NCBI GenBank assembly: GCA_017461475.1
Contig: JAFTXX010000003.1
Location: 43,171 to 107,170 of the forward strand
Direction of reading: 5' to 3'
DNA: 64,000 nt
Origin: Clostridia bacterium
Lineage (GTDB): Bacteria > Bacillota > Clostridia > Oscillospirales > CAG-272
The notes beneath the pieces were generated by a model, which saw only the letters and a program-made list of their open reading frames with translations, searched no databases and was not told the origin of the DNA. The position numbers and the translations under genes are program-made. Shown here piece by piece: positions 18,529 to 60,240 of the stretch (positions are counted from its first letter, which is position 1; each line of letters starts with the position of its first letter).

Positions 18529-18556
18529 GGGGTACCATCCGTAAGGATGGTACCCC
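18529..18556 (+). terminator. Strong hairpin after the 666-aa gene
   Basis: ggggtaccatcc-gtaa-ggatggtacccc. The following T-run is weak. Confidence 0.5.
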
Positions 18557-18663
18557 GGTTATATTCGCCTGCGGCGAGTGATATTGCTTTGCAGTGATAT
18601 ACGGCTTTGCCGTGTGGTATTCGGTTACGCCGAGTTTTTAGGCGAATATCACTTACAAACGAT

Positions 18664-18780: not shown

Positions 18781-19872
18781 ATGAAGGTTGTATTAAAAAA
18801 TCTTACGAAAAAATTCCCGCCGATAAATAAAAAGGCGGCAGAGGGCGTTACCGCGGTCAATAATTTCACCTTTGAAATTCCCGACGGTAAACTTGTCGGA
18901 CTGCTCGGACCCTCCGGATGCGGCAAAAGCACCGCGCTTAACCTCATCTGCGGATTGCTCACTCCCACATCGGGTAAAATTTTCTTCGGTGACGACGACG
19001 TGACCGAACTTCCTCCCGAGCGCCGCGGTGTCGGACTTGTGTTCCAGAACTACGCGCTTTATCCGCACCTCACCGTAAGACAAAATATCATATTCCCGCT
19101 TGAAAATCTTAAAGGCAAGGACAAACTTACAAAGGCGCAGATGAATGAAAAAGCGCTCGAAATCGCAAAACTCGTGCAGATTGACAGTCTCATGGACCGC
19201 AAACCCGGCGAACTTTCGGGCGGTCAGCAGCAGCGAGTTGCCATTGCCCGCGCACTTGTAAAAATGCCGCGCGTTCTGCTCCTTGACGAGCCGCTTTCAA
19301 ACCTTGATGCGCGTCTTCGCCTGCAGACCCGTGAGGAAATCAGCCGCATACAGAAAGAAACGGGCATAACCACGGTTTTTGTAACGCACGACCAGGAAGA
19401 AGCAATGAGCATTTCGGACATTATCGTTGTTATGAAAGACGGCGTTGTTCAGCAGGTCGGCAAGCCGCAGGATGTGTACGACGAGCCGACAAATCTTTTT
19501 GTCGCCAAGTTCCTCGGCACTCCGCCTATCAATGTTTTTAGCGGCTGTGTCAAGGACTCAAAACTTTACATCGGCGAGGATTTTGTGCTTGACGCAAACG
19601 GCGTTTCCGACAGGGAAGTGTACGTCGGCATCCGCCCCGAGGGGTTTGTGCTTACCGAGAGCGGCAAGTTCAACTGCGAACTTTCCCGCGTTGAGGTGAT
19701 GGGGCGCGACATAAGCGTTGTCGCAACCAATGCACACTCCGAAAATCCCACCGTCCGCGCCATTATCAGCGCCGAAAACAAGCTTGACCTTGCGGCAAAG
19801 ACAGTAAGTTTTGATTTAAAGCCGAATAAAGTCTTTATCTTTGACAAAACCACCGAAGAAAGAATAAAGTAA
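18781..19872 (+). CDS. Carbohydrate ABC transporter ATP-binding protein (MsmK/UgpC/MalK type)
   Basis: [35 protein letters not shown], plus a C-terminal MalK-like regulatory/TOBE region. Confidence 0.95.
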   Translation: MKVVLKNLTKKFPPINKKAAEGVTAVNNFTFEIPDGKLVGLLGPSGCGKSTALNLICGLLTPTSGKIFFGDDDVTELPPERRGVGLVFQNYALYPHLTVRQNIIFPLENLKGKDKLTKAQMNEKALEIAKLVQIDSLMDRKPGELSGGQQQRVAIARALVKMPRVLLLDEPLSNLDARLRLQTREEISRIQKETGITTVFVTHDQEEAMSISDIIVVMKDGVVQQVGKPQDVYDEPTNLFVAKFLGTPPINVFSGCVKDSKLYIGEDFVLDANGVSDREVYVGIRPEGFVLTESGKFNCELSRVEVMGRDISVVATNAHSENPTVRAIISAENKLDLAAKTVSFDLKPNKVFIFDKTTEERIK

Positions 19873-27161: not shown

Positions 27162-27190
27162 TTGACTTTACGATCGAATTGCGTTACACT
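27162..27190 (+). promoter_or_regulatory. Sigma-A-type promoter upstream of the riboswitch
   Basis: TTGACT, 17 nt spacer, TACACT. Confidence 0.5.
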
Positions 27191-27204
27191 ACTAAATGAA
27201 CTTA

Positions 27205-27415
27205 ATATTCACACAGAGTGTCGGGTAAGCCGCAAAGGCTCGCTCGGTGAAAAGGGAACGTGGTGCGAATCCACGACGATACCAGTCGCTGTATACATCC
27301 GAATGTTTTTGTGCTCGTCGGCGAAAGCCGGTCATTGGGAAACTGAGAAGGCAGAGTATGAAAACGCGGGGCAATGCGCCCTATAGGATGTGAGTCAAAA
27401 GACCTGCTCTGATGT
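27205..27415 (+). promoter_or_regulatory. Cobalamin (B12) riboswitch aptamer
   Basis: Core ggtgaaaagggaacgtggtgcgaatccacg...cagtcgctgta, then gccggtcattgggaaactgagaaggc, and a B12-box-like gagtcaaaagacctgct. The 5' cagag and 3' ctctg can close P1. Confidence 0.8.
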
Positions 27416-27525
27416 TGCTCCGTCCGTGTGTTTTACATAGGAGCAATAGTTTTGTTTGGCACTATCATGGCTTTTGATAGGCTTTGTTGCGTTGCCTTGC
27501 AAAATGTGTAAGACACAGAAAAACT

Positions 27526-27568
27526 CTGCTGTGGTAATTTTTAAAAATTACCGCAGCTTTTTTGTTTG
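27526..27568 (+). terminator. Intrinsic terminator (riboswitch expression platform)
   Basis: gctgtggtaattttt / aaaaattaccgcagc stem (one G-U pair) followed by ttttttg, 50 nt before the ATG at 27619. Confidence 0.75.
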
Positions 27569-27618
27569 TCTTTTGTGACTGTTTTGGTTCAAATTCAATT
27601 TTTCAAAGGAGAATTACA

Positions 27619-30600
27619 ATGAAACTCAAAAAAATTGTATCGTTACTACTGAGTATGGTAATGATGCTAAGTATGTTGCCGATTACTATTGGTGCAGCAG
27701 AATTACCGATTAACGGTAACAAATTGGACATTGCCGACCAACAAGTCGGCCCATTCACCTTGCAGTATCTAGAAGTATATTTGCAAGAGTCTTATTTACC
27801 TGTATCTATCGTCAGCGCCGAGCAAAACGGCACTACGATAGACATTGCTCTGTCACCGGATACCGACCCGTCGGCAATGCTGCAGGCAGGCTTTGGCGGC
27901 ACAGGTATGGCCACTTTGTCTCATAGTAACAATAAATGTACTTTGTCTGACGGAAACGGAACCATGACTTGTTCGGTTACCGCATTTCAAGGACGGCCGG
28001 TTGCCGGTGCAAGCTTTACCATTAACTTTAGTCTGGCAACACCGGCAGGACCTGCCGTAAAGTTTACCTCAAACCTTTCCGAAGCAGAAGCGGTATATGT
28101 ACAGGGCAAACCCGCAACGCCCATAACGGTTTCTGCAGAGTACGTTGGCGGTGAAACCGAAGAAAACGTAACTTATCAGTGGTACAAAAACTCCGAAAAG
28201 AGTAACGTAGGCGGAATAGCAATAGACGGTGCAACTTCGAACAGATACACTCCTGCAACCGATGAAATCGGCATTGCCTATTACTATGTAACAGCCTCGT
28301 GCGAGGGCTTGAGCGCAACAAGTAAAATTGCGACAGTTACCGTAGAAGCCCCCGAAGTCAAATTTACATCCAATCTTAATGAAACCGAAATTAAGTGCAC
28401 TCAGGGCAAAGATGTTCCTGCTCTTACAGTAGCCGCAGAGTACACAGGTGTAACCGATAACGCCGTAACGTATCAGTGGTATTCAAATACAACCAAGAGT
28501 ACAGAGGGCGGCACTCTTATCGAAAATGCAACAGATGCAAGCTATACTCCCGCTTCCGATAATGTAGGAACTACATATTATTACGTTGTAGCTACTTGCG
28601 AAGAAAAGAATAGCGCAAGTAAAATTGCAACTGTTACCATAGAGGAGCCGATAGTAAAGATTACAAGCGACCTTGATGAAGAGGAAAAGTTCTGCATTTT
28701 CGGCAAGAGTGCTCCGAATCTTGCAATATCGGCGGAGTATACCGGAGTTACAGAAGAAGTCATTACATATCAGTGGTATTCAAATACAACCAAGAGCACC
28801 GAGGACGGTACGCCTATTGATAATGCAATCGAGGCAAGCTATACTCCTAAAACCGACGCATTGGGTACAACCTATTACTATGCGGTTGCATCTTGCGAAG
28901 GGAAGTCAGCCGTAAGTGCCATCGCTACGGTTACGGTAGAAGCAGACCTTTCACCCGAAAGCGGCTTGTGGCTTGGCATTGAGACATCCAATGGCAGTGT
29001 AAACTTTGTAAAATTCACCGATGCAAACGGCGAAAAAATCGATGGGCTCTATTCCGAACTTGACGGTACAAAAATAACAGTTACTTTGCCGCGAAGCTAT
29101 GGCGCAAACGAAAAAGTCACCGCCGACTTTAATTTGACACAGACTGCGACAAATGATGGAAAATTACCGTTCATTTCAGGCAGTAATGCATTTAATCAGG
29201 GCGTAGGAAGCACTACGGCATACACAGTAGCTCTTGCAAGCGGAAGAGCAACAAAGACGCTGTATCTTTATAATTCCAAGCCCCGCGCAACGAATAACAA
29301 TCCTGCTGTTTACATTATAAGCTATGCAATAGCCAATGAAATTCCCGCACTGGCTGACGGGCAGAATACAGAAGGAACTGCTGAGATCGTTGCAGGCAAT
29401 GCATACACGCTTGACCTTGCACCTGTTTTTACGGATGCTGACGGAGATGCTCTCACTTACAGCGTCAAGATAAACGGTGAAGCGGCAGTAGCGGCAGATG
29501 TAAATTACAGTTTTGCTCCTACACTCGGCGGAACATATACGCTTGAATTTTTTGCAAACGACTTCATGTCCGCTTCCGAGCAGTCGTATACGGTTACACT
29601 TGATGTAATAAATTCTACCGTAACATACGATATGTCCGTTTTGCTTCCGAGTGATATAGCTCCCGCATTTTATATCACAAACGGTTATGATAGCGGCACT
29701 GATGTTCTCGGTGACACACTTGTATTTGTGTCAGGCGAGACGGCAGACGGATATATTCCTTACACCGTTTCTGTCCCCGAGAATATTTCCGAAATTTCTG
29801 TAAGAGATGCCGCATACGGCGGCATGGCAATACCTGCTGCAAGTGAAAGCACCGTAACGCTTCAAAAGGTAGAAACGGAAATCATAGACTTTAGCGATAA
29901 AGAAATTTCGGGTACTGTCAGCGTTTCTTACGGCGAGAAAAAAGCCGTAGGTGTTGACGGCAAATTCCTGCTTGTACCGCAAAAGGAATATAAGTTTACG
30001 GCATCTCCCGAAAACACCTCAATATATAGTGCAAAAACAGAAACACTCACTTTAACCGAAGAAATCACCGCTGTAACCGTTAAAGTACCGTATAAAAACC
30101 CTAAAACGATCATTACTACCACGGGGGCAACCGCAAAAATGTTCAAGTATGCGGGTAACTATCATGTGCATACCGTATATGAACCTCTTGCAACCGTGGA
30201 AAACGGAAACGGCACCTCCACGCATTATTTCAGCGTAAGCGGAGATATCAGCTACCGTGTTTCAATGGAAGGCAAAATCACGAAGGCTGGATATCTCAAA
30301 ACTGGCAATTCTGTAACAGTGCTTCACAGTGAAGCGGACAAGCTCCCCACCGACAGAGTTGACTATACCACCGTAGGCACAAATGCCGCCGAGGTCGGTG
30401 ATGACAGCGTCCTTCTGGGTATCAATCAGCAAAACCATCTTTCTTTGTTGCTTGGTGCAACAAAAACACTCAAAGCATACAGAACATGGCAGATTATCGA
30501 CCTAAGTTACAATAACCACATTATTGAACCCGATTTCAGTTTTAATATAATTTCGGGTGAAGACGTTGTCAGCCTTGCGCCTTATGAGAATCAGCCCACA

Positions 30601-33093
30601 ACCAACGGCAGCGGAAACTGGCGAAAGCTTACTGCTATCGGAGAGGGTACTGCGGTTGTCGAGGTCACCTACGATGCTATCGACATCAGCGGCGGTTCGT
30701 ATAACGGCTTTTACGGTGCGGCAGATCCTGCAAGAACAGGACTTTTTATAGTTACCGTTGGTGAAAATGTTCCTGACGTTGATTTTGGCATAGACTGCAA
30801 AACCGGTGCCGACAGTATGGTTTATACTCCCTCGAATGCAAAGCCTTGGGACGCGGAGTTTGATACGCTCTACTTCCTTGGCGAAAGCGGAGAAATCAAG
30901 CTTTCCCCCACATTTGCAGATGGTAATATAACCGAGGTTGCAGTATCGGGCGATAAGGGTGAAAGCTATACCGTTCTTGAAGAAACCGACGGAGTTTATA
31001 CCGCACCTATTATATCTGGCAACAATATCATTCGTGTTACCACAGATAAAGGTATAGCATATCAGATAGTTCGAGGCGATAAAGTTGAACTTGCGATTAA
31101 GAACATTACAAATCCCGGTAAGCCCATATCTGCCGGCGATGAGATAAGCCTTACACTTATCGGTGTACACACACCTATACCGAAAATTGCAGGCACCTAC
31201 AATCCCGGATACAAAAACAACATGGACGGCGATGGCGGAGTACATCTCCATTACAGTTTCGGCGACGATACCATTAAAAGTGAGGGCAAGCAATACAACT
31301 TCTCATTGTATGGCACTACTGTAAAGTTTACTGTTCCCGCGGATAGCGAAGAAACCGAATTTACGCTTACAGACGGTTATATCGGTGTGGGCGTAATAGG
31401 AGTTACTACTTTCCCGAATGACGGAGAAAGCCACCGAAATATTCCCGATGCCGGAGGCACTACAAGAGGAAGCACAACTACATTCCACACACGTAGTCTG
31501 CTTCCGGACATTACAGTCAAAGTAGGTATGCTCCCGAGCGGCAATACCGCACCCTTTATCCGTGAAAATGCACCTAAGACCGCCACTTTGAATCTCGGCG
31601 GAACATATGCTCTCAGTATGTCGAAGGTTTTCACAGACCGCGAAAGTGACACTCTCACCTACACCGCGAAAGTCGGTAACGGCGAAGCTTCTTTGGTAGC
31701 GGATGCGTATTATACATTTACTCCCGACTCAGTTGGCACATGTACAATAGAGTTTACAGCAAATGACGGCACAGTGGACAGTGATATACACACTGTAACA
31801 CTTTATGTTAAAGAAAAACAAAGCACTTCCACGTCGTCAATTGAATTTGACATTGATGAAGATGATATTGCCGGCTATGTAAAAGTAAGCTTTGCGGACA
31901 AAGGAAAGCGCGTTGAGGGTGAAGAGAATATAACCTACCCGAAGGCGCTTGGTACAATCATTTCAACAAAACGTGTTCCTTTTGCAGACGGCGACACCGT
32001 TGCAGACGTCACTCTCCGTTTACTTGATGCGTACGGGTTTACATACGAATACACCGGAACAACAAAGGATGGCTTCTACCTTGCTTCAATTGGTGGTTTT
32101 ACACTTAAAGGCATAAGCTATGATTCGTTCGGCGAATTTGATGCAGGTACAGGCTCGGGCTGGATGATTACACTTAATAATGATTTCATTGAGTACGGAG
32201 CGTCCGAGTTTGAAGTAGCAAACGGTGATGTAATTAAATGGCAGTATACCTGTCAGCTTGGTTCAGACATTGGTGATCCATTCTATTCCGACTCATCTTC
32301 TTCCGAAAGCTCAACAAACACCTATACAGTTAAGTTTGAAACAAACGGCGGAAGTGCTGTAAGTAATCAAAAGGTTGACAAAAATGATACCGCCACAGAA
32401 CCCGAAGCACCTACCAAGGACGGCTATACCTTCGGCGGTTGGTACACTGACAAGGAACTGACCAAAGAGTATGATTTTGACACCAAGGTTACAAAGAGCT
32501 TTACACTGTATGCGAAGTGGACGGAAAAAGCTTCGGCAGACGAAAATCATTTCAGTGACATCGGCGAAAACGATTGGTACTACCTCTATGTACAGTATGT
32601 ATACGAAAACGGACTTATGCAGGGCACCGATGACGGTTTTGAGCCAGACGGCAACATGACAAGAGCTATGCTTGTTACCGTGCTGTACAGACTTGACGGC
32701 GCGGAGAACGGCAAAGACGGTTGCAGATTCACGGATGTTGCAGAGGGCGAGTGGTACGCGGACGCTGTTGCATGGGCAAATGAAAACGGCATCGTCGTTG
32801 GCATCAGCGAGACAGAATTTGCACCGAACGACAACATCACTCGCGAGCAGATGGCGGCTGTAATCTATCGCTATGCAAAGTTCAAGGGATATGATGTCAG
32901 CGACAAAGCAGACATTTCTGACTTTGCAGACGCGGATGAGATAAGCGGGTATGCACTCGACGCACTTGCGTGGGCAAATGCAAATGAACTTGTAAAGGGC
33001 ACTACGGACACAACCGTATCGCCTAAAGGCACGGCTACGCGTGCGCATGTAGCGGCCATCCTCATGCGCTTTTGCGAGAACATAGCAAAATAA
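27619..33093 (+). CDS. 1,824-aa SLH-anchored multidomain surface protein: Ig-like YQWY repeats, cadherin-like modules, a DUF4430-like module, a Listeria-Bacteroides-type repeat and 3 SLH
   Basis: AAAGGAGAA RBS and signal peptide MKLKKIVSLLLSMVMMLSMLPITIGAAE. Three tandem ~99-aa repeats. FTDADGDALTYS and FTDRESDTLTYT modules. GSGWMITLNN...NGDVIKWQYTCQLGSDIG. YTVKFETNGG...GYTFGGWYTD. Three canonical SLH repeats at the C-terminus. Confidence 0.9.
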   Translation: MKLKKIVSLLLSMVMMLSMLPITIGAAELPINGNKLDIADQQVGPFTLQYLEVYLQESYLPVSIVSAEQNGTTIDIALSPDTDPSAMLQAGFGGTGMATLSHSNNKCTLSDGNGTMTCSVTAFQGRPVAGASFTINFSLATPAGPAVKFTSNLSEAEAVYVQGKPATPITVSAEYVGGETEENVTYQWYKNSEKSNVGGIAIDGATSNRYTPATDEIGIAYYYVTASCEGLSATSKIATVTVEAPEVKFTSNLNETEIKCTQGKDVPALTVAAEYTGVTDNAVTYQWYSNTTKSTEGGTLIENATDASYTPASDNVGTTYYYVVATCEEKNSASKIATVTIEEPIVKITSDLDEEEKFCIFGKSAPNLAISAEYTGVTEEVITYQWYSNTTKSTEDGTPIDNAIEASYTPKTDALGTTYYYAVASCEGKSAVSAIATVTVEADLSPESGLWLGIETSNGSVNFVKFTDANGEKIDGLYSELDGTKITVTLPRSYGANEKVTADFNLTQTATNDGKLPFISGSNAFNQGVGSTTAYTVALASGRATKTLYLYNSKPRATNNNPAVYIISYAIANEIPALADGQNTEGTAEIVAGNAYTLDLAPVFTDADGDALTYSVKINGEAAVAADVNYSFAPTLGGTYTLEFFANDFMSASEQSYTVTLDVINSTVTYDMSVLLPSDIAPAFYITNGYDSGTDVLGDTLVFVSGETADGYIPYTVSVPENISEISVRDAAYGGMAIPAASESTVTLQKVETEIIDFSDKEISGTVSVSYGEKKAVGVDGKFLLVPQKEYKFTASPENTSIYSAKTETLTLTEEITAVTVKVPYKNPKTIITTTGATAKMFKYAGNYHVHTVYEPLATVENGNGTSTHYFSVSGDISYRVSMEGKITKAGYLKTGNSVTVLHSEADKLPTDRVDYTTVGTNAAEVGDDSVLLGINQQNHLSLLLGATKTLKAYRTWQIIDLSYNNHIIEPDFSFNIISGEDVVSLAPYENQPTTNGSGNWRKLTAIGEGTAVVEVTYDAIDISGGSYNGFYGAADPARTGLFIVTVGENVPDVDFGIDCKTGADSMVYTPSNAKPWDAEFDTLYFLGESGEIKLSPTFADGNITEVAVSGDKGESYTVLEETDGVYTAPIISGNNIIRVTTDKGIAYQIVRGDKVELAIKNITNPGKPISAGDEISLTLIGVHTPIPKIAGTYNPGYKNNMDGDGGVHLHYSFGDDTIKSEGKQYNFSLYGTTVKFTVPADSEETEFTLTDGYIGVGVIGVTTFPNDGESHRNIPDAGGTTRGSTTTFHTRSLLPDITVKVGMLPSGNTAPFIRENAPKTATLNLGGTYALSMSKVFTDRESDTLTYTAKVGNGEASLVADAYYTFTPDSVGTCTIEFTANDGTVDSDIHTVTLYVKEKQSTSTSSIEFDIDEDDIAGYVKVSFADKGKRVEGEENITYPKALGTIISTKRVPFADGDTVADVTLRLLDAYGFTYEYTGTTKDGFYLASIGGFTLKGISYDSFGEFDAGTGSGWMITLNNDFIEYGASEFEVANGDVIKWQYTCQLGSDIGDPFYSDSSSSESSTNTYTVKFETNGGSAVSNQKVDKNDTATEPEAPTKDGYTFGGWYTDKELTKEYDFDTKVTKSFTLYAKWTEKASADENHFSDIGENDWYYLYVQYVYENGLMQGTDDGFEPDGNMTRAMLVTVLYRLDGAENGKDGCRFTDVAEGEWYADAVAWANENGIVVGISETEFAPNDNITREQMAAVIYRYAKFKGYDVSDKADISDFADADEISGYALDALAWANANELVKGTTDTTVSPKGTATRAHVAAILMRFCENIAK
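28051..28944 (+). repeat. Three in-frame tandem repeats of ~298 bp inside the giant gene
   Basis: Units start at 28051, 28351 and 28648. Each encodes P.VK(F/I)TS.L.E.E....GK......(V/I).AEY.G.....VTYQWY.N..KS..GG..I..A..(N/A)(R/S)YTP..D..G..YYY....CE......S.IATVT(V/I)E. Confidence 0.9.
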
Positions 33094-33156
33094 CTTATAG
33101 GGATTGCGAACAGCCGCTATGGCTGCTCGCTTTTCCCGTTTTAGAAAGGGTATACG

Positions 33157-34716
33157 ATGAAGAAGATATTTTCACTCTTGCTGTGTCTGCTAATGTTTGT
33201 CAGCACGGTTTTACCTGCCTTTGCCGCGGAGAGTGACACAGTTTCCGACGTCGCGGCGTATGTATACAAAACTGTGGCTTCACCGCAGGTCGGCTCTGTC
33301 GGCGGTGAGTGGGCGGTGCTTGGACTTGCACGCGGCGGTGCGGATATCCCAAGCGAATACTATGCCGATTATTATGCAAACGTTGAGGCGTATGTAAAAG
33401 AGTGTAAAGGCGTTTTGCATACAAAGAAGTATACCGAGTATTCGCGCGTGATACTTGCGCTGACCGCAATAGGCAAAGACCCCTCAAATGTTGCTGGGTA
33501 TGATTTGATCGCACCGCTCGGCGACTTTGATAAAACTGTATGGCAGGGGGTAAACGGCGCGATATTTGCGCTGATTGCCCTTGACAGCGGCGATTATGAA
33601 AGTGACCTTCGCGAAAGGTATGTTGATTATATTTTGCAAAAACAACTCGCCGACGGCGGTTTTGCGCTCTCGGGCGAGAGTGCCGATGCCGATGTTACCG
33701 CTATGGCGCTGCAGGCGCTTGCAAAGTATAAAAATAACGCTGCGGTTAAAACAGCAATAGAAAAAGCACTCCTTTGCTTGTCCGAAATGCAAAACGCAAG
33801 CGGCGGTTTTTCAATCAGTGGAGAGGAAACCGCCGAGAGCGCGGCGCAGGTAACAGTCGCGCTTTGCGAGCTCGGTATTTCTCTTGACGATACACGCTTT
33901 GTCAAAAACGGCAATACCGTGCTTGACAATTTGATGACCTATTATGTCAATGGAGAGGGCTTTAGACATACGCATAGCGGCGGCACAAATCAGATGGCAA
34001 CAGAGCAATGCTTTTACGCGCTCGTTGCCGCCGAGCGTTTGGCAAGCGGCAAAAACAGCCTCTACTGCATGAGTGATGCGGCAAATCTTGTGGGTGACGC
34101 CGCAGGTCTTGCAGGCAAGCACGCCGATGTTAATGTAAAGCCGATAGTCGCCGTAAAAACATTTGCAGACATCAAAGGTCACAAAAATCAATCAGCAATA
34201 GAGGCGCTCGCGTCAAGAAAAATAATCAACGGCAAAAGCGATACATCGTTTGAACCAAGTGCAACGATGACACGCGCAGAGTTTGCAACGATAGTGGTAA
34301 ATGCACTCGGACTTCCTCGTCAAAGCAAAGCGGTGTTTGCGGATGTCACGGGCGGCGATTGGTACTACAGCTACATCAATACCGCGTATGCTTACGGCAT
34401 TATCAAGGGCGTATCAGACACCGAGTTTAACCCAGGCGGCACTATAACGCGCGAAGAAGCGGCAGTCATGGTAGCACGCGCGGCAAAGCTGTGCGGTATG
34501 GACACCGATTATACCGCGTATGAAGCGCGCAATATCCTTGCAGGATTTTCCGATTATGTAAAGGCGTCGGAATGGGCATATAGCTCGCTTGCATTTTGCT
34601 ATGATAAAGGCGTTTTGGACGACAGCGCCATGTCGATACAACCGAAAGCTGCCGTAACGCGCGGAGAGATCGCACAAATGCTTTACAATATGCTTTCGCT
34701 GGCAAAGCTTTTATAA
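33157..34716 (+). CDS. SLH-anchored protein with a prenyltransferase/squalene-oxidase-type alpha/alpha-toroid domain
   Basis: Signal peptide ..PAFAAE. Repeats of the type GGEWAVLGLARGG, QGVNGAIFALIALD, QLADGGFALSG, QNASGGFSISG. Three SLH repeats (FADIKGH.., FADVTGGDWYY.., FSDYVKASEWAY..). Confidence 0.8.
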   Translation: MKKIFSLLLCLLMFVSTVLPAFAAESDTVSDVAAYVYKTVASPQVGSVGGEWAVLGLARGGADIPSEYYADYYANVEAYVKECKGVLHTKKYTEYSRVILALTAIGKDPSNVAGYDLIAPLGDFDKTVWQGVNGAIFALIALDSGDYESDLRERYVDYILQKQLADGGFALSGESADADVTAMALQALAKYKNNAAVKTAIEKALLCLSEMQNASGGFSISGEETAESAAQVTVALCELGISLDDTRFVKNGNTVLDNLMTYYVNGEGFRHTHSGGTNQMATEQCFYALVAAERLASGKNSLYCMSDAANLVGDAAGLAGKHADVNVKPIVAVKTFADIKGHKNQSAIEALASRKIINGKSDTSFEPSATMTRAEFATIVVNALGLPRQSKAVFADVTGGDWYYSYINTAYAYGIIKGVSDTEFNPGGTITREEAAVMVARAAKLCGMDTDYTAYEARNILAGFSDYVKASEWAYSSLAFCYDKGVLDDSAMSIQPKAAVTRGEIAQMLYNMLSLAKLL

Positions 34717-34725
34717 GGAGAACGG

Positions 34726-35370
34726 ATGAAAAAACATATCAACAAGATCATAGCGGCTGTACTTGTCCTTGCGGTTTTGGTATTTGTATTTTGGTGGGGC
34801 GGCAATGCACCGAGCCTTCGCGGCTTCGGCAATGCCGAGGAGACGACAGCCGATACCGCCGTAACCGACAAGTACAAAACAAATACCGTGCCAGAGGATA
34901 AACCTTCTCCCGTCGAACCCGAGGACGCGGTCATTTCGGACAGGGAACTTACCTGTACGCTTTCGGTGCGGTGCGATACGATTTTGGATAACTTAAACTG
35001 GCTCGACCCCGAAAAGGTAGAGCTTGTTCCCAAAGACGGCGTTATCTACGCTGAAAAAACGGTCACATTTTACGAGGGCGAAAGCGTGTTTAATCTGCTT
35101 GTACGTGAGATGAAGCAAAATAAGATTCACATGGAGTTTGTCAATACCCCCATCTACAATAGCGCTTACATTGAGGGAATCGGCAATCTCTATGAATTTG
35201 ACTGCGGCGAGCTTTCGGGTTGGATGTACAAGGTGAACGACTGGTTCCCGAACTACGGCTGCTCGCGCTATCAGCTTTGCGACGGCGACAAAGTCGAATG
35301 GGTATATACATGCGACCTCGGCGAAGATGTCGGCGGCGGATATTCCTCGGGAGTACAAAAGGATGAATGA
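34726..35370 (+). CDS. Membrane-anchored DUF4430-like protein (transcobalamin beta-domain-like)
   Basis: N-terminal TM IIAAVLVLAVLVFVFWW. C-terminal LSGWMYKVNDWFPNYGCSRYQLCDGDKVEWVYTCDLGEDVG. Confidence 0.75.
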   Translation: MKKHINKIIAAVLVLAVLVFVFWWGGNAPSLRGFGNAEETTADTAVTDKYKTNTVPEDKPSPVEPEDAVISDRELTCTLSVRCDTILDNLNWLDPEKVELVPKDGVIYAEKTVTFYEGESVFNLLVREMKQNKIHMEFVNTPIYNSAYIEGIGNLYEFDCGELSGWMYKVNDWFPNYGCSRYQLCDGDKVEWVYTCDLGEDVGGGYSSGVQKDE

Positions 35371-36250
35371 GTTTAAGACATACCATCCGATTGTTAACTT
35401 TGCTTATTTTGCATTCGTTATCGGATTTTCGATGTTTTATATGCACCCCGTATGCCTTGCCGTCACGCTTGCAAGCGGCTTTGTCTATTCGGTAATGCTC
35501 AAAGGCCCAAAAGCGATAAAAACAAATCTTTTGTATATGCTGCCGACAATGCTTATAACGGCGCTTATGAATCCTGCGTTTAACCACGAAGGCGTGACCA
35601 TCCTCACATATCTGCCGAGCGGCAATCCGCTCACGCTCGAGTCGATATTGTACGGTCTCTCGGCGGCGGTGATGATAGTCAGCGTGATGTGTCACTTTTC
35701 GTGCTACAACGCCGTTATGACAAGCGATAAATTCATCTATTTGTTCGGTAGAGTGATTCCGTCGCTGTCGCTGATACTTTCCATGACGCTTCGCTTTGTG
35801 CCAAAATTTACGTCACAGCTTAAAGTGGTAACAAACGCACAGAAATGCATCGGGCGAGATGTTTCAAACGGCTCGCTCTTGCAGAGAGCGAAAAACGGCA
35901 TTTCCATACTGTCTGTAATGGTTACATGGTCGCTTGAAAATGCGGTAGAGACAGCAGACAGCATGAAGTCGCGCGGCTACGGTATGCGTGGGCGCACCGC
36001 GTTTTCGATTTTTAGATTTGACAAGCGGGACGCGGCGGCGCTTCTTTGCATTTCGTTTTTGGGAGTTTATGTGCTTGTCGGCGGTGTTGCGGGCGGTATG
36101 GATTTCAGATATTTTCCGTCTGTAAAAGCCACAGAACCGACTATATATACTGTCAGCATTTTTGCGGCATATTTTGCGCTGTGCGCATTGCCGATAGCGG
36201 TTGAAGTCTTAGAGGTGAGAAAGTGGAAAGCTATAAGATCCAAAATTTAA
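35363..36250 (+). CDS. ECF transporter transmembrane (T) component, CbiQ/EcfT family
   Basis: ATGAATGA start/stop overlap with the previous gene. About 5-6 TM segments. C-terminal ..VETADSMKSRGYG.. (conserved Arg-Gly coupling-helix-like motif). Confidence 0.8.
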   Translation: MNEFKTYHPIVNFAYFAFVIGFSMFYMHPVCLAVTLASGFVYSVMLKGPKAIKTNLLYMLPTMLITALMNPAFNHEGVTILTYLPSGNPLTLESILYGLSAAVMIVSVMCHFSCYNAVMTSDKFIYLFGRVIPSLSLILSMTLRFVPKFTSQLKVVTNAQKCIGRDVSNGSLLQRAKNGISILSVMVTWSLENAVETADSMKSRGYGMRGRTAFSIFRFDKRDAAALLCISFLGVYVLVGGVAGGMDFRYFPSVKATEPTIYTVSIFAAYFALCALPIAVEVLEVRKWKAIRSKI

Positions 36251-38661
36251 GTTTTACATATCCCAACCGCGCGTGTGCGGCACTCGTTGACATAAACCTT
36301 ACTGTCAATGAGGGTGAATTTGTCACTCTGTGCGGCAAATCGGGTTGCGGAAAAACAACGCTTTTGCGCCTGCTCAAAACTTCGCTTGCGCCGCACGGCA
36401 AGCTTTGTGGCAGTATCGATTTCTGCGGTACATCACTTGCTGACACGGATGCAAGAACACAGGCTTCCAAGATAGGCTTTGTCATGCAGAGCCCCGATAA
36501 CCAAATCGTGACCGATAAGGTGTGGCACGAACTTGCGTTTGGACTTGAAAGCCTCGGATGCCCCACCCCCGAGATACGCACACGCGTGGCTGAGATGGCG
36601 TCATTTTTCGGAATCCAAACATGGTTTCACAAAAGCGTGACCGAACTTTCGGGCGGTCAAAAGCAGCTTTTAAATCTCGCTTCAGTCATGGTTATGCAGC
36701 CGTCAGTGCTTATTTTGGACGAGCCGACAAGCCAACTTGACCCCATAGCCGCCGAAGAGTTTTTGAAAACGCTCGAAAAAATAAATCGCGAACTTGGAAC
36801 AACGGTGATATTGTCTGAGCACCGCTTGGAAGATGCGTTCCCTATATCCGACCGCGTTGTCGTTATAGACAGCGGCAGAATAATTGCGGATGCCGAGCCG
36901 AAGAAGGTCTGCGAGATCTTAAAAACAACAAGGCACGATATGTATGCCGCTTTGCCCGCACCGATACGCATTTACGGCGCTGTTGAGACCGATGCTGCAT
37001 TTCCGCTCACGGTTCGTGAGGGTAGAGGGTGGTTTTTGAAATATGCCGAGACGCATACGCCGAAAACGGACGCAATATTGCCCGAAAACAAGCCGCTTGC
37101 GACCGAGACGGCAGTTGAAATAAATGACGCATGGTTCCGCTATGAAAAAGAACTTCCCGATGTCATAAAAGGTCTCAGCCTAAAGGTGCAAAAAGGGGAA
37201 CTGTTCGCCATCCTCGGCGGCAACGGCACGGGAAAAACCACTGCGCTTTCACTAATAAGCGGTCTTAACACGCCGTATCGCGGAAATGTGCTCATAAAAG
37301 GTAAGTCTGTCGCAGATATCGCCGACTTGTATAACGGTACTCTCGGCGTGCTTCCTCAAAATCCGCAGTGTTTGTTTACAAAAAAGACCGTGCGCGCAGA
37401 CCTTTTTGAAATGACAAATAACGCAGAGCATATTCAAAACATAGCAGAGATCTGCAAAATAGCAGAACTGCTCGACAGCCACCCATACGACCTTTCAGGT
37501 GGTGAACAGCAGCGCGCGGCACTTGCCAAAGTGCTTTTGCTTTCGCCGAGAATTTTGCTGCTCGACGAGCCGACCAAAGGTATGGATGCGCAGTTCAAGG
37601 CGTGCTTTGCGGATATTCTGCAGGATTTAAAGGCAAACGGCGTTACTGTCATAATGGTGTCGCACGATATTGAATTTTGTGCCGAGCATGCCGATAGATG
37701 CGCGATGTTTTTTGACGGCAATATTGCATCAGTAGGCACACCGCGTGAGTTCTTCGCAGGCAAAAACTTTTATACCACCTCTGCCAATCGAATCGTGCGC
37801 GAAAAACTGCCACGCGCCGTGACCGCCGAGGATGTGATACTCGCTCTCGGCGGCAAAGTTGAAAAAAGAGAGCGTGTCCCAAGGCGCATAATTCCGCATG
37901 AAAAAAAAGAGCAACCCCAAAAAACGTTCAAAGAGAATATCCAACAACCGCAAAACAACCGCCGCTTAACGGGGCGCACCCTCGCAGCAATGCTTTTGAT
38001 ACTGCTCGTAATACCGCTCACAATTTTTGTCGGCATTGTCTATCTCGGCGACAGAAAGTATTATTTCATAAGCCTGCTCATCATCCTTGAAACCATGATA
38101 CCGTTTTTCATGGTGTTTGAGGGCAGAAAACCCAAGGCACGCGAACTCGTCGTGATAAGCGTGCTGTGCGCTATAGGCGTAGCAGGCAGAGCCGCGTTTT
38201 TTATGTTGCCGCAGTTCAAACCCGTAACGGCGCTTGTCATTATAGCGGGTGTATGTTTCGGCGGAGAAACAGGATTCCTCGTCGGTGCGGTAACGGGCTT
38301 TGTCTCAAACTTCTTTTTCGGACAAGGTCCGTGGACTCCGTGGCAGATGTTCGCTTTCGGAATTATCGGCTTTATAGCGGGAGTGCTGTTCCGCAAAGGT
38401 ATCTTGCGCAAGACAAAAATATCGCTCTGTATCTTCGGATTTATTGCAACGCTCATAATTTACGGCGGAATAATGAATACCGCATCCGTGCTTATTTGGC
38501 AGGCAACACCCAAAGCCCAAATGTTCCTCTCAGCAAGCACTGTGGGACTGCCGTTCGACCTTATCCACGCAGCATCCACCGCCTTATTCCTATGGCTCGC
38601 CGCAGAGCCCATGATCGATAAGCTCGAAAGAATAAAAGCCAAGTACGGTTTGATAGAATAA
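36223..38661 (+). CDS. Fusion protein: two ECF-type ABC ATPase domains + a C-terminal multi-TM S-component-like domain
   Basis: GTG start overlapping the T gene. Domain 1: GKSGCGKTT, LSGGQKQLLNLA, ILDEPTSQLD. Domain 2: GGNGTGKTT, LSGGEQQRAALA, LLLDEPTKGMD. From ~nt 37930 there are six hydrophobic segments (..GQGPWTPWQMFAFGIIGF..). Confidence 0.85.
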   Translation: MESYKIQNLSFTYPNRACAALVDINLTVNEGEFVTLCGKSGCGKTTLLRLLKTSLAPHGKLCGSIDFCGTSLADTDARTQASKIGFVMQSPDNQIVTDKVWHELAFGLESLGCPTPEIRTRVAEMASFFGIQTWFHKSVTELSGGQKQLLNLASVMVMQPSVLILDEPTSQLDPIAAEEFLKTLEKINRELGTTVILSEHRLEDAFPISDRVVVIDSGRIIADAEPKKVCEILKTTRHDMYAALPAPIRIYGAVETDAAFPLTVREGRGWFLKYAETHTPKTDAILPENKPLATETAVEINDAWFRYEKELPDVIKGLSLKVQKGELFAILGGNGTGKTTALSLISGLNTPYRGNVLIKGKSVADIADLYNGTLGVLPQNPQCLFTKKTVRADLFEMTNNAEHIQNIAEICKIAELLDSHPYDLSGGEQQRAALAKVLLLSPRILLLDEPTKGMDAQFKACFADILQDLKANGVTVIMVSHDIEFCAEHADRCAMFFDGNIASVGTPREFFAGKNFYTTSANRIVREKLPRAVTAEDVILALGGKVEKRERVPRRIIPHEKKEQPQKTFKENIQQPQNNRRLTGRTLAAMLLILLVIPLTIFVGIVYLGDRKYYFISLLIILETMIPFFMVFEGRKPKARELVVISVLCAIGVAGRAAFFMLPQFKPVTALVIIAGVCFGGETGFLVGAVTGFVSNFFFGQGPWTPWQMFAFGIIGFIAGVLFRKGILRKTKISLCIFGFIATLIIYGGIMNTASVLIWQATPKAQMFLSASTVGLPFDLIHAASTALFLWLAAEPMIDKLERIKAKYGLIE

Positions 38662-39288
38662 GGCAGAGAATGAATATCAATTTATTTCTGCATTGCGATT
38701 TTTAAACTCAGTATTTACTGAATATGCTTCATGAAGAGCGTTTTAATGCAACATGGAAGGATATATGTCGCGTGATGTCACTTCCAGGTGTTATTATATG
38801 ACGTCAGCGATTTCATCAAGGGAAAACGGATTAAATGCACTGAGATAGCGGTATCGATTACCAGCATATGTATATGATCTTTACATGCTTTCTACTTGCT
38901 TGTATTCGCCATTATTCCTATGTCCTTCTTTATCTTCCCATATTAGAGCTTTTTCGTACGAGTGTGAATATAACAAAAGGTATGTGGTTTCGCAGGATAA
39001 AAAGATTTTACAAGATTTGCTGAATGCATATCGCAATACTTAATCCTTCTGTTTAATATTAAAGTTTGAATATCGACTCCATTTATATATTAGAAAAAGT
39101 GGTAACGACGTACTCTATTTCTTTTGAAGTTAGGTGCTTAGGAAATTGAACATGAAAACTCCGCTTCAATTTGAAACGGAGTTCTTTTGTGCATTGAAAA
39201 ATAAAATGGTTTCCCACCTTAGACTCAGATTGTTATGGGGTTCTAAAGTGGGAAATCTTCAAAAATTAGAAAATTTTTCATTTACCTA

Positions 39289-39317
39289 TTGACAAGGTAG
39301 GCAATGTGTGTTATGCT
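39289..39317 (+). promoter_or_regulatory. Sigma-A-type promoter (extended -10) for the sulfur-amino-acid operon
   Basis: TTGACA (39289-94), 17 nt spacer, TATAAT-like TATGCT (39312-17) preceded by TGt. Confidence 0.6.
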
Positions 39318-39366
39318 AATACCAACCCAATCGGTAGGTAATTCGAGAAGAAAGGAGAACATAGTC

Positions 39367-39486
39367 ATGAAAGAGTTTAATTCCACCGCTATGATGATGG
39401 GGATGTGCATGCAGACTTGTTGTACGTGCATGATTTCTTGCGTCCAAAAATCCGATATGTTCTCCATCTCAGAAGTAAACGCATAA
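39367..39486 (+). CDS. 39-aa Met/Cys-rich mini-ORF (candidate leader peptide)
   Basis: AAAGGAGAA RBS 7 nt upstream. Peptide is MKEFNSTAMMMGMCMQTCCTCMISCVQKSDMFSISEVNA, with 8 Met + 5 Cys of 39 residues and 11 of 17 codons in 39391..39441. Confidence 0.55.
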   Translation: MKEFNSTAMMMGMCMQTCCTCMISCVQKSDMFSISEVNA

Positions 39487-39521
39487 GCCGCCCCATTTTT
39501 GCGGAACAACATTTGTTTACG

Positions 39522-39561
39522 ATCGGGAGAACTTTATCGGAGTCTCCCGATTTATTATTTT
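39522..39561 (+). terminator. Intrinsic terminator between the mini-ORF and metY (candidate attenuator)
   Basis: atcgggaga (39522-30) pairs with tctcccgat (39543-51), followed by ttattatttt. Confidence 0.7.
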
Positions 39562-39707
39562 GAAGGTAGGTAAAAACCTATGAAAAACTATTTTGAAAAG
39601 ATTGTCGTAGCAAATTTCCGATTCGGTCGAATGTGTCGATGTTGAAGATTAAGAAAAACATAACGAACAGCATCACGTATTTTTAATAATGAAAGGAAAT
39701 CAATATC

Positions 39708-40991
39708 ATGTCTAACTATAAATTTGAAACTTTACAGCTCCATGTAGGTCAGGAAAATCCCGATCCCGCAACCGATGCCCGTGCGGTACCGATTTACGCA
39801 ACCACTTCTTATGTATTCAAGAACTCTGCTCACGCCGCGGCTCGTTTCGGTCTCGCCGATGCCGGTAACATTTACGGCAGACTTACCAATTCCACACAGG
39901 ATGTCCTAGAACAGCGTGTAGCAGCTCTTGAAGGCGGCGTTGCTGCTTTGGCTCTCGCTTCCGGTGCTGCAGCAATTACATATACCCTTGAGGCACTCGG
40001 TCAGAATGGCGGTCACTTCGTGGCACAGAAGACCATTTACGGCGGTAGTTACAATCTGCTGGCACATACTTTACCTAACTTCGGTATTACCGCAAGTTTT
40101 GTCAACATTCACGACCTCGCCGAAGTCGAAGCGGCTATTCAGGATAACACCAGAGCGATATACATTGAAACCCTCGGTAACCCCAACAGCGATATTCCGG
40201 ATATCGACGCACTGGCTTCTCTTGCTCACAAGCACGGTTTGCCCCTCGTAGTAGACAACACCTTCGGTACGCCGTACCTCATCCGTCCTATCGAGCACGG
40301 CGCGGATATCGTGGTACATTCCGCTACCAAGTTTCTCGGCGGTCACGGTACCACACTGGGCGGCGTGATCGTAGACTCCGGTAAATTCGATTGGACTGCA
40401 AGCGGCAAGTATCCAGCAATCGCCGATCCCAATCCCAGCTATCACGGCGTATCCTTTGTGAAAGCAGTCGGTCCTGCGGCGTTTGTAACATATATCCGCG
40501 CTATCCTGCTCCGTGATACCGGTGCTACCATTTCTCCTTTCGCCGCATTCCTGCTCTTACAGGGCATCGAGACTCTGTCTCTACGTCTGGAGCGTCATGC
40601 TGAAAATACCAAGAAGGTTGTCGAATTCCTTGCAAACCACCCGCAAGTTGAAAAGGTCAATCATCCGTCTTTGGCAGATCACCCCGACAACGAGTTGTAT
40701 CAGAAATATTTCCCCAATGGTGGCGGTTCCATCTTCACTTTTGAGATCAAGGGCGGCGTGGCTGAGGCACACAAGTTCATTGACAGCCTGGAAATCTTCT
40801 CTTTGCTCGCCAATGTTGCTGATGTAAAGAGCCTTGTGATCCACCCGGCAACCACCACACACAGTCAGCTTAGTGCTGAGGAGCTTGAGGATCAGGGCAT
40901 TAAGCCCAACACCATTCGTCTTTCCATCGGTACCGAGCATATCGACGATATTCTCGCCGATCTGCAGCGTGGTTTTGACGCAGTAAAGTAA
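39708..40991 (+). CDS. metY: O-acetylhomoserine sulfhydrylase (aminocarboxypropyltransferase)
   Basis: N-terminus [44 protein letters not shown] carries the PLP-binding Lys. 427 aa. Confidence 0.9.
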
Positions 40992-59200: not shown

Positions 59201-60217
59201 GACACCTGCGGCTATTCCTGGGGCGAGGATGGAGAGTATATTTCGAGTATCGTGTTCAACATCGATCCGCCCGAAATCGGTGCAAAGGCCGATTATACCA
59301 AGTTTGACGGTAAGCGTTTTGCAAGCGACAATTCGGGACTGAGCGCATCGAGATACAAGAACGGCATTGCATGGGAGAACACAACAAGCGGCAAATTCCT
59401 GCTCCCCGGCGGCACAGAGGTGTTCGCGGAGGGCAACGTTTATAAAATCTATATTTCTTTCCGTACCAATGGCGACTATAAGTTTGCAACTAATGTTACC
59501 GCAACAATTAACGGCACTACAGCAAAGACAGAGTATATCAGTGAGCAGTTTGTAAATGTTGAATATACATTCCCGAAGCTCGACCACAAGCATGATTACA
59601 CCTTGATGCGAAACGAAAACTCACATCACTACGAGTGTCTTGTTTGCAGTACAGTCAAGGATGCAGGCAGTCATACATTTGACGCAAACGGACGTTGCAA
59701 GACCTGCGGATACAGTAAAAATACGGGTAATCCCTTTACCGATATAAAGGCAAGCGACTACTTCTTCGATGCGGTAATGTGGGCAAAGGATACGGGACTT
59801 ACCGTTGGTACTACTGCAACCACGTTCTCGCCATACGACACCTGCACCAGAGCACATGGAATTACATTCCTTTGGCGTGCGGCGGGTAAACCTATAGCAA
59901 AGAATAAGGTAAATCCGTTTACCGATGTAAAAACCACCGACTACTATTACGATGCGGTGCTTTGGGGTGTTGAAGAGGGAATTATAGTAGGTACATCGAA
60001 GACAACTTTTACACCTCACCAGACCTGTTCAAGTGCCCACATTATCACAATGCTGTACCGAGCAATGAAGATAGGCAATAACGGCTGGTACGAGGAAGCA
60101 AAGTCTTGGGCAAATGGAGAGGGACTTCTTAACGGAACGAAGTTTGTCGTTTCACCCGATGAGCCTTGTCCGAGAGCAGGAATTGCATATTTCCTCTATA
60201 TGTTCTACGAAAAATAA
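56204..60217 (+). CDS. 1,337-aa secreted protein: extreme Cys-rich acidic N-terminal region, Ig-like YQWY module, Cys4 mini-modules, C-terminal SLH-like triple anchor
   Basis: GGAGGA RBS and signal peptide MKRRIAYVFAIVLLALVFSFAVFA. Dense CxxC arrays. C-terminus NPFTDIKASDYFFDAVMWA.. / NPFTDVKTTDYYYDAVLWG.. / WYEEAKSWANGEGLLNG. Confidence 0.85.
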   Translation: MKRRIAYVFAIVLLALVFSFAVFASDDGANCMYCGAYRYGDWLCDCGLCSIEAEPADCWAATHCWECGACFNTMTKFCVECHYCEECYVAEGTHCLGCEECHISDYQDELCGECWFCADCMGGLCDGCGFCAGCQELDGGVHCPECGGCYGEYGACEEDGAEHCKECCLICEQCERCVFDDGLELCSECNFCEECCRHAAQSEGCDCGEYCVESSDWYDHVCLNCGTPYCQIDQCDLCELCLDCCESNSDCSEGLCVMDDEYDYHFCEDCGICFHEVDACEDCGDAGELRCEDCSAAITEDAGCDCSDMCFNMAGFDTHVATEHKGADGSHTAKPQKTWTYDMNYHWRDCSLCSEAAHITVKEKHAFDYFGICAVCGFDSKTKIVILRQPNSRIVEVSDNDAGAGEPYNIEDNQVSFSVAAVGTGTLTYQWYEKRGMSEWKPMKDEMNYFVANSKFYTVYGTKTDRLTIAVPVDVCYTEYAYRVVITDAEGNTVTSAAAQIASKHIYKKAIAHKGALIGTIRQSNKSDNIGVYATNGHYILCQGDGCEAEKIVSHNYGKGVREYVDNTDYSVWTEFVCKDCGFVNYIKNHDHYFYDPESGECEVDYTYKNSVNHRLKCLYPDCEKTTLEAHVFMPWGNHGTPHTASGGVGIAFKECALCAYSYTKKPQYFDFVKEENITTDWTKANDLVYVRYGFASGDIYTVGDSMYITFAPTVTDKRDHIKMTNPKCVGWKVFYSGNNVSDIDVTSACTFEKLEGEAKWVVKISKFLTHTGGGTFAFVPTIDTKECEHINGSRIFGAYKPICTTDGYTGDRKCVDCGYVVQYGEAIPGGEEHAGELKLVSGTSRNGTCEQRGYEGDYKCSHCGAKVKGKTTPKVHTGKTTVKNAKKATCTSFGYTGDTYCSCGAMIKEGDLIVPTHSNIVTLNYKEATCKNDGYSGDMQCKDCGIFVRYGHTVKGGEHAWSDYKVLDAVNHKCYCKVSGCNEIMTEAHTDADRNLVCDTCGYSWGEDGEYISSIVFNIDPPEIGAKADYTKFDGKRFASDNSGLSASRYKNGIAWENTTSGKFLLPGGTEVFAEGNVYKIYISFRTNGDYKFATNVTATINGTTAKTEYISEQFVNVEYTFPKLDHKHDYTLMRNENSHHYECLVCSTVKDAGSHTFDANGRCKTCGYSKNTGNPFTDIKASDYFFDAVMWAKDTGLTVGTTATTFSPYDTCTRAHGITFLWRAAGKPIAKNKVNPFTDVKTTDYYYDAVLWGVEEGIIVGTSKTTFTPHQTCSSAHIITMLYRAMKIGNNGWYEEAKSWANGEGLLNGTKFVVSPDEPCPRAGIAYFLYMFYEK

Positions 60218-60240
60218 ATCAATTAAAAGGGAGCAAAATT

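Follow-up and report, generated by a model that had tools for sequence, protein, structure and literature searches.

A cobalamin-riboswitch operon from a Clostridia bacterium encoding a CbrT-like ECF importer and candidate transcobalamin-like capture proteins

Analysis of a 64,000-nucleotide (nt) stretch of DNA from a Clostridia bacterium (CAG-272; GCA_017461475.1, contig JAFTXX010000003.1, positions 43,171-107,170 of the forward strand), hereafter the window, led to an operon of five co-directional open reading frames (ORFs), g1 to g5, which follow a cobalamin riboswitch and an intrinsic terminator. The operon probably encodes a corrinoid-repressed, dedicated importer of the CbrT type, belonging to the energy-coupling factor (ECF) transporters, together with transcobalamin-like capture proteins that are located outside the membrane. 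This reading is carried by the riboswitch and the terminator themselves, by the domain identities of the encoded proteins, by the relationship of the S domain with CbrT, and by a gene order that is conserved in other genomes along with its link to the riboswitch. Several contigs from metagenomes, the longest of them 192 kb, contain an identical operon. The features of the locus, all on the + strand, are as follows (aa, amino acids):

27162-27190, + strand: promoter-like -35/-10 pair TTGACT-17-TACACT, from a consensus scan (9/12; a consensus match only)
27201-27425, + strand: cobalamin riboswitch aptamer RF00174, from Rfam (full model, 1-189 of 189)
27528-27567, + strand: intrinsic terminator with a 13-bp stem (27528-27557) and a 4-nt loop, then the T-run TTTTTTGTTT
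27619-33093, + strand: g1, 1,824 aa, ATG after AAAGGAG; secreted, SLH-anchored multidomain protein
33157-34716, + strand: g2, 519 aa; signal peptide, alpha/alpha toroid and three SLH domains
34726-35370, + strand: g3, 214 aa; N-terminal transmembrane anchor, linker and C-terminal DUF4430 domain
35327-36250, + strand: g4, 307 aa; T component of the EcfT/CbiQ type, overlapping the end of g3
36223-38661, + strand: g5, 812 aa; EcfA-EcfA'-S triple fusion

The first-pass annotation of this DNA had placed a promoter, a cobalamin riboswitch and an intrinsic terminator directly upstream of five tightly packed genes, and this layout was confirmed, the promoter by consensus only. The Rfam scan of the 64-kb window returned two matches only, one of them being RF00174, with 59.8 bits against a gathering score of 31.5 (E-value = 2.7e-12); the B12-box region of this riboswitch reads GUCAAAAGACCUGC. 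Our own covariance model R1 gave it 109.8 bits, a score that is not independent, as the sequence is among the 14 from which R1 was built. The position of the promoter-like pair fits the start of the aptamer at 27201, so that the transcript start would fall just before the riboswitch. The terminator is separated from the start codon of g1 by 52 nt, and the leader 3' of the aptamer has a minimum free energy of -63.9 kcal/mol, which is below that of all 200 shuffled sequences (z = -3.65). A strong terminator established between the aptamer and the start codon fits an OFF switch, and the leader would act as a corrinoid-repressed one, a direction that we infer from its arrangement. Concerning the packing of the genes, g1 and g2 are separated by 63 nt and g2 and g3 by 9 nt, while the last two junctions overlap, exactly as had been claimed. 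The protein families that had been named for the five genes were also all recovered by Pfam or NCBIfam, weakly in the case of Prenyltrans/SQHop_cyclase for g2. Within the 63-nt spacer between g1 and g2, a short GC-rich hairpin (CAGCCGCTATGGCTG) with a weak T-rich tail was observed at 33111-33135 (+ strand); it could lower the read-through into g2-g5 or stabilise the g1 transcript.

The ECF module encoded by g4 and g5 is dedicated and complete, with the T component, two ATPase domains and the S component in adjacent or overlapping genes. The g4 protein matches CbiQ (PF02361) with 29.1 bits against a cut-off of 25. The g5 protein harbors ABC ATPases at about aa 1-250 and 290-530 and the S domain at about aa 640-810 (nt 38140-38649); its two ABC_tran domains score 203 bits, TIGR04520 scores 338 bits (cut-off 315) and ECF_trnsprt (PF12822) 44 bits (cut-off 30.7). 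As a single sequence, the S domain matched 6FNP_A with an E-value of 6e-9, and a profile of 33 orthologous S domains matched the same chain with an E-value of 1.2e-14 over residues 6-177 of 182, the only other S component of the PDB matched by this profile being 4HZU_S (E-value = 2e-3). Judged from its sequence, the S domain of g5 is specifically CbrT-like. The structure 6FNP is the ECF-CbrT complex of Lactobacillus delbrueckii, for which transport of cobalamin and cobinamide has been demonstrated and which is not inhibited by hemin (PMC5997447); CbrT was originally predicted by Rodionov et al. (2009), as cited in the same paper. That g4 and g5 constitute a riboswitch-controlled ECF importer of corrinoids is very likely.

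In order to study the conservation of the operon, one genome per species was scanned with the alignment of the g2 toroid, which gave at least 231 relatives in Bacillota; the best 80 loci were analysed, and the gene order in them was counted by tblastn with the domains of the window. These loci belong to Oscillospiraceae, Intestinimonas, Flavonifractor, Pseudoflavonifractor, Neglectibacter, Paenibacillus, Cohnella, Pelotomaculum, Sedimentibacter, Paratissierella, Peptococcaceae and many uncultured Clostridia. In 72 of the 80, the toroid gene is immediately followed by a DUF4430 gene of the g3 type, and the full series toroid-DUF4430-T-A-A'-S (A and A' being the two ATPases) occurs in the same order in at least 56, most of the others being truncated at contig ends. 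One ORF encodes A-A'-S in 51 of the 56 loci with the full module. Median identities to the window over these 56 loci were:

DUF4430 domain of g3: 74%
S domain: 68%
ATPase domains: 64% and 58%
T component: 60%
toroid: 55%

The value of 74% makes g3 the most constrained protein of the module. Concerning its regulation, Rfam detected RF00174 upstream and on the same strand in all seven loci that were tested first (7/7). A covariance model built from the RF00174 hits of the first-tested loci was then run on all 80 and detected in 48 a riboswitch that precedes the toroid gene on the same strand, within 700 nt in 22 of them and at a distance of 1.4-8.9 kb in 26; an Rfam recheck of seven negative loci added one more, raising the count to 49/80. 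Many of the riboswitch-negative loci have little upstream sequence, and the chance expectation for an upstream riboswitch would be a few per cent, a figure that is our own estimate and not a computed one. The link of the riboswitch to the module is frequent, not universal. A second or third cobalamin riboswitch is established directly downstream of the A-A'-S gene in loci L014 and L056, and also in L023, L028, L048 and L013. In L014 (16234-19835) the downstream riboswitch controls another DUF4430 surface protein, with GLUG motifs, and in L056 (15972-17240) it controls the cobalt chelatase CbiK, so that such loci are small clusters of B12-regulated genes.

The g3 protein consists of a transmembrane helix (aa 2-27), a membrane-adjacent motif FWWGG-AP-LRG, a low-complexity linker and a DUF4430 domain (PF14478) at aa 118-195 (nt 35077-35310), which scores 61 bits in Pfam against a cut-off of 23.8. 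Transcobalamins have DUF4430 as their C-terminal domain (PMC4350170), and Burroughs et al. (2007; PMC1796856) introduced it as the 'transcobalamin-like clade' of the SLBB beta-grasp superfamily. The AlphaFold2 model of g3 contains a helix (121-132) followed by strands at 146-149 and 154-157, the order expected from the beta-hairpin that this clade carries after the helix of its beta-grasp core, with a predicted local distance difference test score (pLDDT) below 50 there. The top PDB matches of this model in Foldseek are almost all beta domains of transcobalamin, haptocorrin or intrinsic factor, and they include the isolated human transcobalamin beta domain with cyanocobalamin (5np4) as well as the DUF4430 structure 3u7z. 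Across the module loci, Cys77, Cys83, Cys196, His135, the block of aa 134-182 and the FWWGG-AP-LRG motif after the transmembrane helix are invariant; the block is the most invariant stretch and covers the hairpin of the model. The invariant cysteines and histidine and the membrane-adjacent motif may represent cobalt ligands or docking contacts. The domain family of g3 is large, with 6,825 representatives of 50%-identity clusters at E-values of 1e-3 or below and 1,503 at 1e-30 or below, and our literature search returned no study on the function of a bacterial DUF4430 protein. Binding of corrinoid by the DUF4430 domains is proposed on the precedent of 5np4, in which the isolated transcobalamin beta domain was solved with cyanocobalamin, and we consider it likely.

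In the g2 protein, the toroid spans aa 27-310 approximately (nt 33235-34086) and is followed by an SLH triplet at aa 334-513 (nt 34156-34695), which scores 114 bits in Pfam; aa 334-508 align with the three-SLH module of Sap from B. anthracis (E-value = 5.7e-14). The AlphaFold2 model (pLDDT 88.7, predicted template modelling score (pTM) 0.82) is an alpha/alpha toroid, and at the level of the model this fold can be regarded as established. Transcobalamin chains are found among its Foldseek matches with E-values of 7e-4 to 5e-3 (8ixt, E-value = 6.7e-4), and the comparison with 7qbe_C gave a template modelling (TM) score of 0.55 and a root-mean-square deviation of 4.6 over 290 columns. A pairing of toroid and DUF4430 would be in line with the gene adjacency described above and with the fusions reported in PMC1796856, and the toroid may reasonably be regarded as similar to the transcobalamin alpha domain. 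For the two proteins forming together a 'split transcobalamin', we put the chances at somewhat better than even. The NCBIfam model 'SCO2321 family membrane protein' was also observed to match the g2 toroid (E-value = 1.8e-10), far below its cut-off. This match may hint that a version of the toroid-DUF4430-ECF module exists in actinobacteria as well.

The g1 protein comprises, in this order, a signal peptide, three Ig-like repeats of about 100 aa, two Big_9 domains, about 800 aa without a match, DUF4430, Flg_new and three SLH domains. The three N-terminal repeats were seen by eye in the translation, and a self-BLAST of g1 gave nothing usable for delimiting them. Pfam detected SLH (116 bits), Flg_new (80 bits), DUF4430 (43.7 bits against a cut-off of 23.8) and Big_9, the SLH triplet being located at nt 32536-33090 approximately, while aa 1-1560 matched no PDB sequence. 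Both g1 and g2 thus combine a signal peptide, read from the translations, with an SLH triplet, in agreement with the SLH anchoring proposed for them. That g1 bears a DUF4430 domain of its own (aa 1458-1544, nt 31990-32250) is a point which the first-pass annotation did not stress; this domain and that of g3 are paralogues with 33% identity (E-value = 1e-19). We considered g1 as a core part of the module at the sequence level and rejected it, as tblastn found its middle region in only 4 of the 80 loci. It is the type of protein and not its sequence that is conserved, because a giant protein of variable make-up, with DUF4430 and SLH domains, recurs at the position of g1. Of the 26 loci where the riboswitch is distant, 22 have a giant ORF of 773-2,094 aa that spans the interval between riboswitch and toroid, and all seven giant ORFs that were scanned (7/7) encode one or two DUF4430 and three SLH domains, the rest of each consisting of changing sets of Ig-like, FIVAR, cadherin-like, MG4 or beta-propeller domains.

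From these data a model of function can be drawn. When intracellular cobalamin is high, the aptamer would be bound, the terminator at 27528-27567 would form and the five genes would stay untranscribed; when B12 is scarce, read-through would lead to all five proteins being made. The g1 and g2 proteins would be exported and attached through their SLH triplets to the secondary cell-wall polymer, and g3 would be tethered to the membrane by its one helix and flexible linker. The DUF4430 domains of g1 and g3, as homologues of the transcobalamin beta domain, would bind corrinoid, and the g2 toroid, in the role of the alpha domain, would close over the ligand on a DUF4430 domain. The tethered g3 would then present the ligand to the CbrT-like S domain of g5, and the S domain, EcfT (g4) and the fused ATPases would translocate it at the expense of ATP. 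The first-pass annotation had proposed such a surface-capture relay leading to an ECF importer, and this proposal has gained from the CbrT-like S domain, the fold matches of g3, the gene adjacency and the riboswitches of 49/80 loci, while its steps of binding and hand-off are kept here as predictions. The ordered relay from g1 inward is the more tentative part, with a chance that we place a little short of even. A bolder version is doubtful in our judgement: that this is an ECF transporter dependent on extracytoplasmic binding proteins, where a ligand-induced 'split transcobalamin' docks on A-A'-S and the tethered domain might process the corrinoid. Such processing by g3 might be a change of the axial ligand of cobalt through the invariant Cys77, Cys83, Cys196 and His135, by analogy with BtuM, whose cysteine ligand acts in decyanation. 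Were this version true, the textbook rule that ECF transporters need no binding protein would fall, and the living bacterial counterpart of the ancestor of animal transcobalamin and intrinsic factor would be identified.

Several results weigh against the reading of the operon as a corrinoid importer fed by transcobalamin-like proteins. The AlphaFold2 model of g3 has low confidence, with a pLDDT of 62 that falls below 50 in the hairpin 136-165, and the E-values of its Foldseek matches are weak, from about 5e-3 to 2e-2. A sequence profile of the g3 family run against the PDB gave noise only, with no transcobalamin or intrinsic-factor chain, and phmmer with g3 alone gave no match there either, so that the link with transcobalamin is drawn from Pfam, the literature and a weak fold match. 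For the g2 model, Foldseek ranks terpene cyclases first, with drimenyl diphosphate synthase on top (E-value = 8e-5), followed by unsaturated glucuronyl hydrolases and beta subunits of prenyltransferases. In Pfam, 56/56 members of the toroid family match SQHop_cyclase_C and 55/56 match Prenyltrans, whereas Cobalamin_bind (PF01122) is essentially absent (1/56 members, E-value = 0.053); for this reason g2 was not filed as a member of that eukaryotic alpha-domain family, a placement which had been considered. No riboswitch was detected in at least nine loci for which the full 10 kb of upstream sequence is present. Finally, the only genetically studied relative has been linked to heme uptake, as discussed below, and ECF transporters, as textbooks describe them, need no extracytoplasmic binding protein, so that the surface proteins may be accessory.

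This last point leads to the alternative that survives best, although we hold it to be improbable, namely that g4 and g5 import corrinoid alone, while g1-g3 form a reservoir or sequestration layer, hoarding the vitamin or withholding it from competitors, or serve an unrelated function in the wall. Indeed, ECF-CbrT is active in proteoliposomes without a soluble binding protein (PMC5997447), and BtuJ1, a surface B12 binder of Bacteroidetes, is described as an extracellular vitamin reservoir. The sequence of g1 is unconserved and g1 is absent from many loci, and four loci (L005, L050, L054 and L058) encode the toroid and a DUF4430-SLH protein but gave no match to ECF genes downstream. Against a storage layer, the toroid and the g3-type gene keep their place immediately before the ECF genes in 56-72 of the 80 loci, and g3 itself is membrane-tethered, bears an invariant membrane-adjacent motif, and has a median identity of 74% against 58-64% for the ATPase domains. 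Conservation of this kind in a tethered protein would point to contacts with the membrane machinery that are under constraint, more than to mere storage.

According to a second alternative, the module would import heme or another non-corrin tetrapyrrole, and its transcobalamin-like proteins would scavenge heme. The operon lsa1836-1840 of L. sakei, with the same parts list, encodes an S component, a fused A-A', a T component, and transcobalamin beta-like and alpha-like proteins; from work that included a deletion mutant its authors concluded that it takes part in the uptake of heme, docking suggested that the groove between alpha and beta could accommodate heme, and a hand-over to the S component was proposed, for heme (bioRxiv 10.1101/864751). 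The same study leaves the specificity for heme versus cobalamin open, and hemin was no competitor of cobalamin in ECF-CbrT (PMC5997447), to which the S domain of g5 is similar. With a cobalamin riboswitch here and upstream in 49/80 related loci, heme as the substrate of this module appears very unlikely. Least probable of all is that the g2 toroid is an enzyme, terpene-cyclase/prenyltransferase-like or glycoside-hydrolase-like, acting on a wall or lipid substrate or remodelling corrinoid, since the cyclase-type families and folds that lie nearest to it, together with a weak match of the toroid-family profile to squalene-hopene cyclase around its catalytic region, are set against scores at or below the gathering score (Prenyltrans 25.3-26.6 against 26.5 for g2), a DxDD(TA) position that is not intact and reads D-A-D-V-T-A at about aa 175-180 in a manual alignment, an extracellular, wall-anchored location away from isoprenoid diphosphate substrates, a toroid firmly linked to DUF4430 and a B12-controlled ECF importer, and the precedent of the transcobalamin alpha domain, itself a non-catalytic toroid (PMC1796856).

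The genomic surroundings of the operon were also studied. Divergent genes of small membrane proteins lie upstream. Downstream, after a gap of 1 kb, there are genes for O-acetylhomoserine sulfhydrylase-type, cysteine synthase-type, radical SAM, MTHFR and ThiF proteins and a LysR regulator, and beyond these sulfur amino-acid genes there is an ABC transporter for amino acids as well as two additional SLH proteins, for which no other assignment was made:

56204-60217, + strand: 1,337 aa, SLH domains
60166-61740, + strand: 524 aa, SLH domains

They show that SLH anchoring is in wide use in this organism. Among the genes scanned, at 24.5-27 kb and 39.7-64 kb, neither a B12-dependent enzyme nor a cob gene could be recognised. 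Immediately before the sulfur amino-acid genes, which start at 39708, the region 39289-39560 presents a strong promoter-like TTGACA-17-TATGCT with TG (39289-39317, + strand) and a good ribosome-binding site in front of a 39-codon ORF (39368-39487, + strand) that encodes MKEFNSTAMMMGMCMQTCCTCMISCVQKSDMFSISEVNA, with seven Met and five Cys, and is followed by a terminator-like hairpin and T-run (39536-39551). It looks like a Met/Cys-rich leader-peptide attenuator, and Rfam at a relaxed threshold gave nothing meaningful in the gap after g5 (38600-39750), with neither a SAM riboswitch nor a T-box. Elsewhere in the window, a Gut-1 RNA (RF01706) was detected at 18556-18625 (+ strand) with 53.8 bits against a gathering score of 50 (E-value = 7.5e-8), about 150 nt upstream of an ORF at 18781-19872, which suggests a gut-associated organism.

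Competition for corrinoids shapes gut communities, and capture by BtuG, BtuH and BtuJ in Bacteroides is being worked out in detail. In this respect, the module described here is a concrete and testable candidate for the missing corrinoid-capture machinery of Gram-positive bacteria. If the toroid and DUF4430 halves assemble on B12, a prediction made in 2007 would be confirmed; an ECF transporter would be seen to use external binding proteins, and light would be shed on the bacterial origin of the animal B12 carriers. If they do not, the operon would still be an ordinary riboswitch-controlled importer of the CbrT type.

The first-pass annotation had also stated that no characterised system with this architecture was known. 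This is overstated, since the class was predicted by Burroughs et al. (2007; PMC1796856) and an ECF operon with similar components has been studied in L. sakei. Burroughs, Balaji, Iyer and Aravind predicted that transcobalamin-like SLBB proteins on the surface of Gram-positive bacteria scavenge B12. These proteins are secreted or wall-anchored, carry Ig, FIVAR or propeller domains and are often fused to an alpha/alpha toroid; a second SLBB paralogue is often encoded in the operon, with CbiO/CbiQ genes adjoining, and the host bacteria usually lack key enzymes of B12 biosynthesis. It was further proposed that animals acquired transcobalamin from such Gram-positive proteins (PMC1796856). The operon of the window fits the description point by point. 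The work of 2007 was purely computational, and term searches of the paper returned no mention of a riboswitch link or of SLH anchoring. The CbrT-like S domain, the A-A'-S fusion, and the split order of a toroid-SLH protein followed by a tethered DUF4430 protein are likewise undescribed in the parts of the article consulted.

The animal carriers themselves, transcobalamin, intrinsic factor and haptocorrin, sandwich one cobalamin between an alpha/alpha toroid and a DUF4430 beta-grasp domain (PMC1796856). Their beta domains are the best matches of the g3 model, and their alpha domains are matched by the g2 model among other toroids. While each carrier is one soluble polypeptide, separate genes encode the two halves in the window, with the toroid wall-anchored and the DUF4430 domain membrane-anchored. 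Concerning the importer, CbrT is the only S component with demonstrated transport of cobalamin and cobinamide, and the S domain of g5 is homologous to it over its whole length (6FNP of L. delbrueckii). In ECF-CbrT a free S component works on a shared, general ECF module, whereas the S domain of the window is fused to both ATPases, has a dedicated T component and is accompanied by three extracytoplasmic proteins. The operon lsa1836-1840, likened here by its description, also joins a dedicated ECF transporter with two separate secreted proteins; it differs in its reported substrate, heme, in a separate S gene and in that no SLH protein or giant DUF4430 protein is among the five described in the text available to us.

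For the analogy with BtuG and BtuH of Bacteroides, which the first-pass annotation had drawn, the functional concept holds and a sequence relation does not. Surface loci of the Btu type in Bacteroides are linked to B12 riboswitches. In these bacteria, several surface B12 binders (BtuG, BtuH and BtuJ) capture the vitamin and hand it to BtuB (PMC6143338, PMC8941943, PMC10404256, PMC13616437), being outer-membrane lipoproteins (with DUF4465 in BtuJ) that serve a TonB-dependent transporter and that appear unrelated to g1-g3. In Pfam (to an E-value of 0.01) and among PDB sequences, no homology of g1-g3 with BtuG, BtuH or BtuJ was detected, so the resemblance is functional only; the solved structures matched by sequence were SLH proteins, with weak cyclase and penicillin-binding-protein matches in addition for the g2 toroid. 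Our literature searches found no paper linking cobalamin riboswitches with SLH proteins, or BtuG with CbrT, and a 2026 review states that extracellular cobamide capture in Gram-positive bacteria 'remains entirely uncharacterized' (PMC13616437). Compared with these systems, the new features are the SLH anchoring of the toroid, the A-A'-S triple fusion, the extremely conserved tethered DUF4430 protein and the recurrent giant DUF4430-SLH protein, and the operon of the window represents a widespread, undescribed variant of a class already predicted in the literature.

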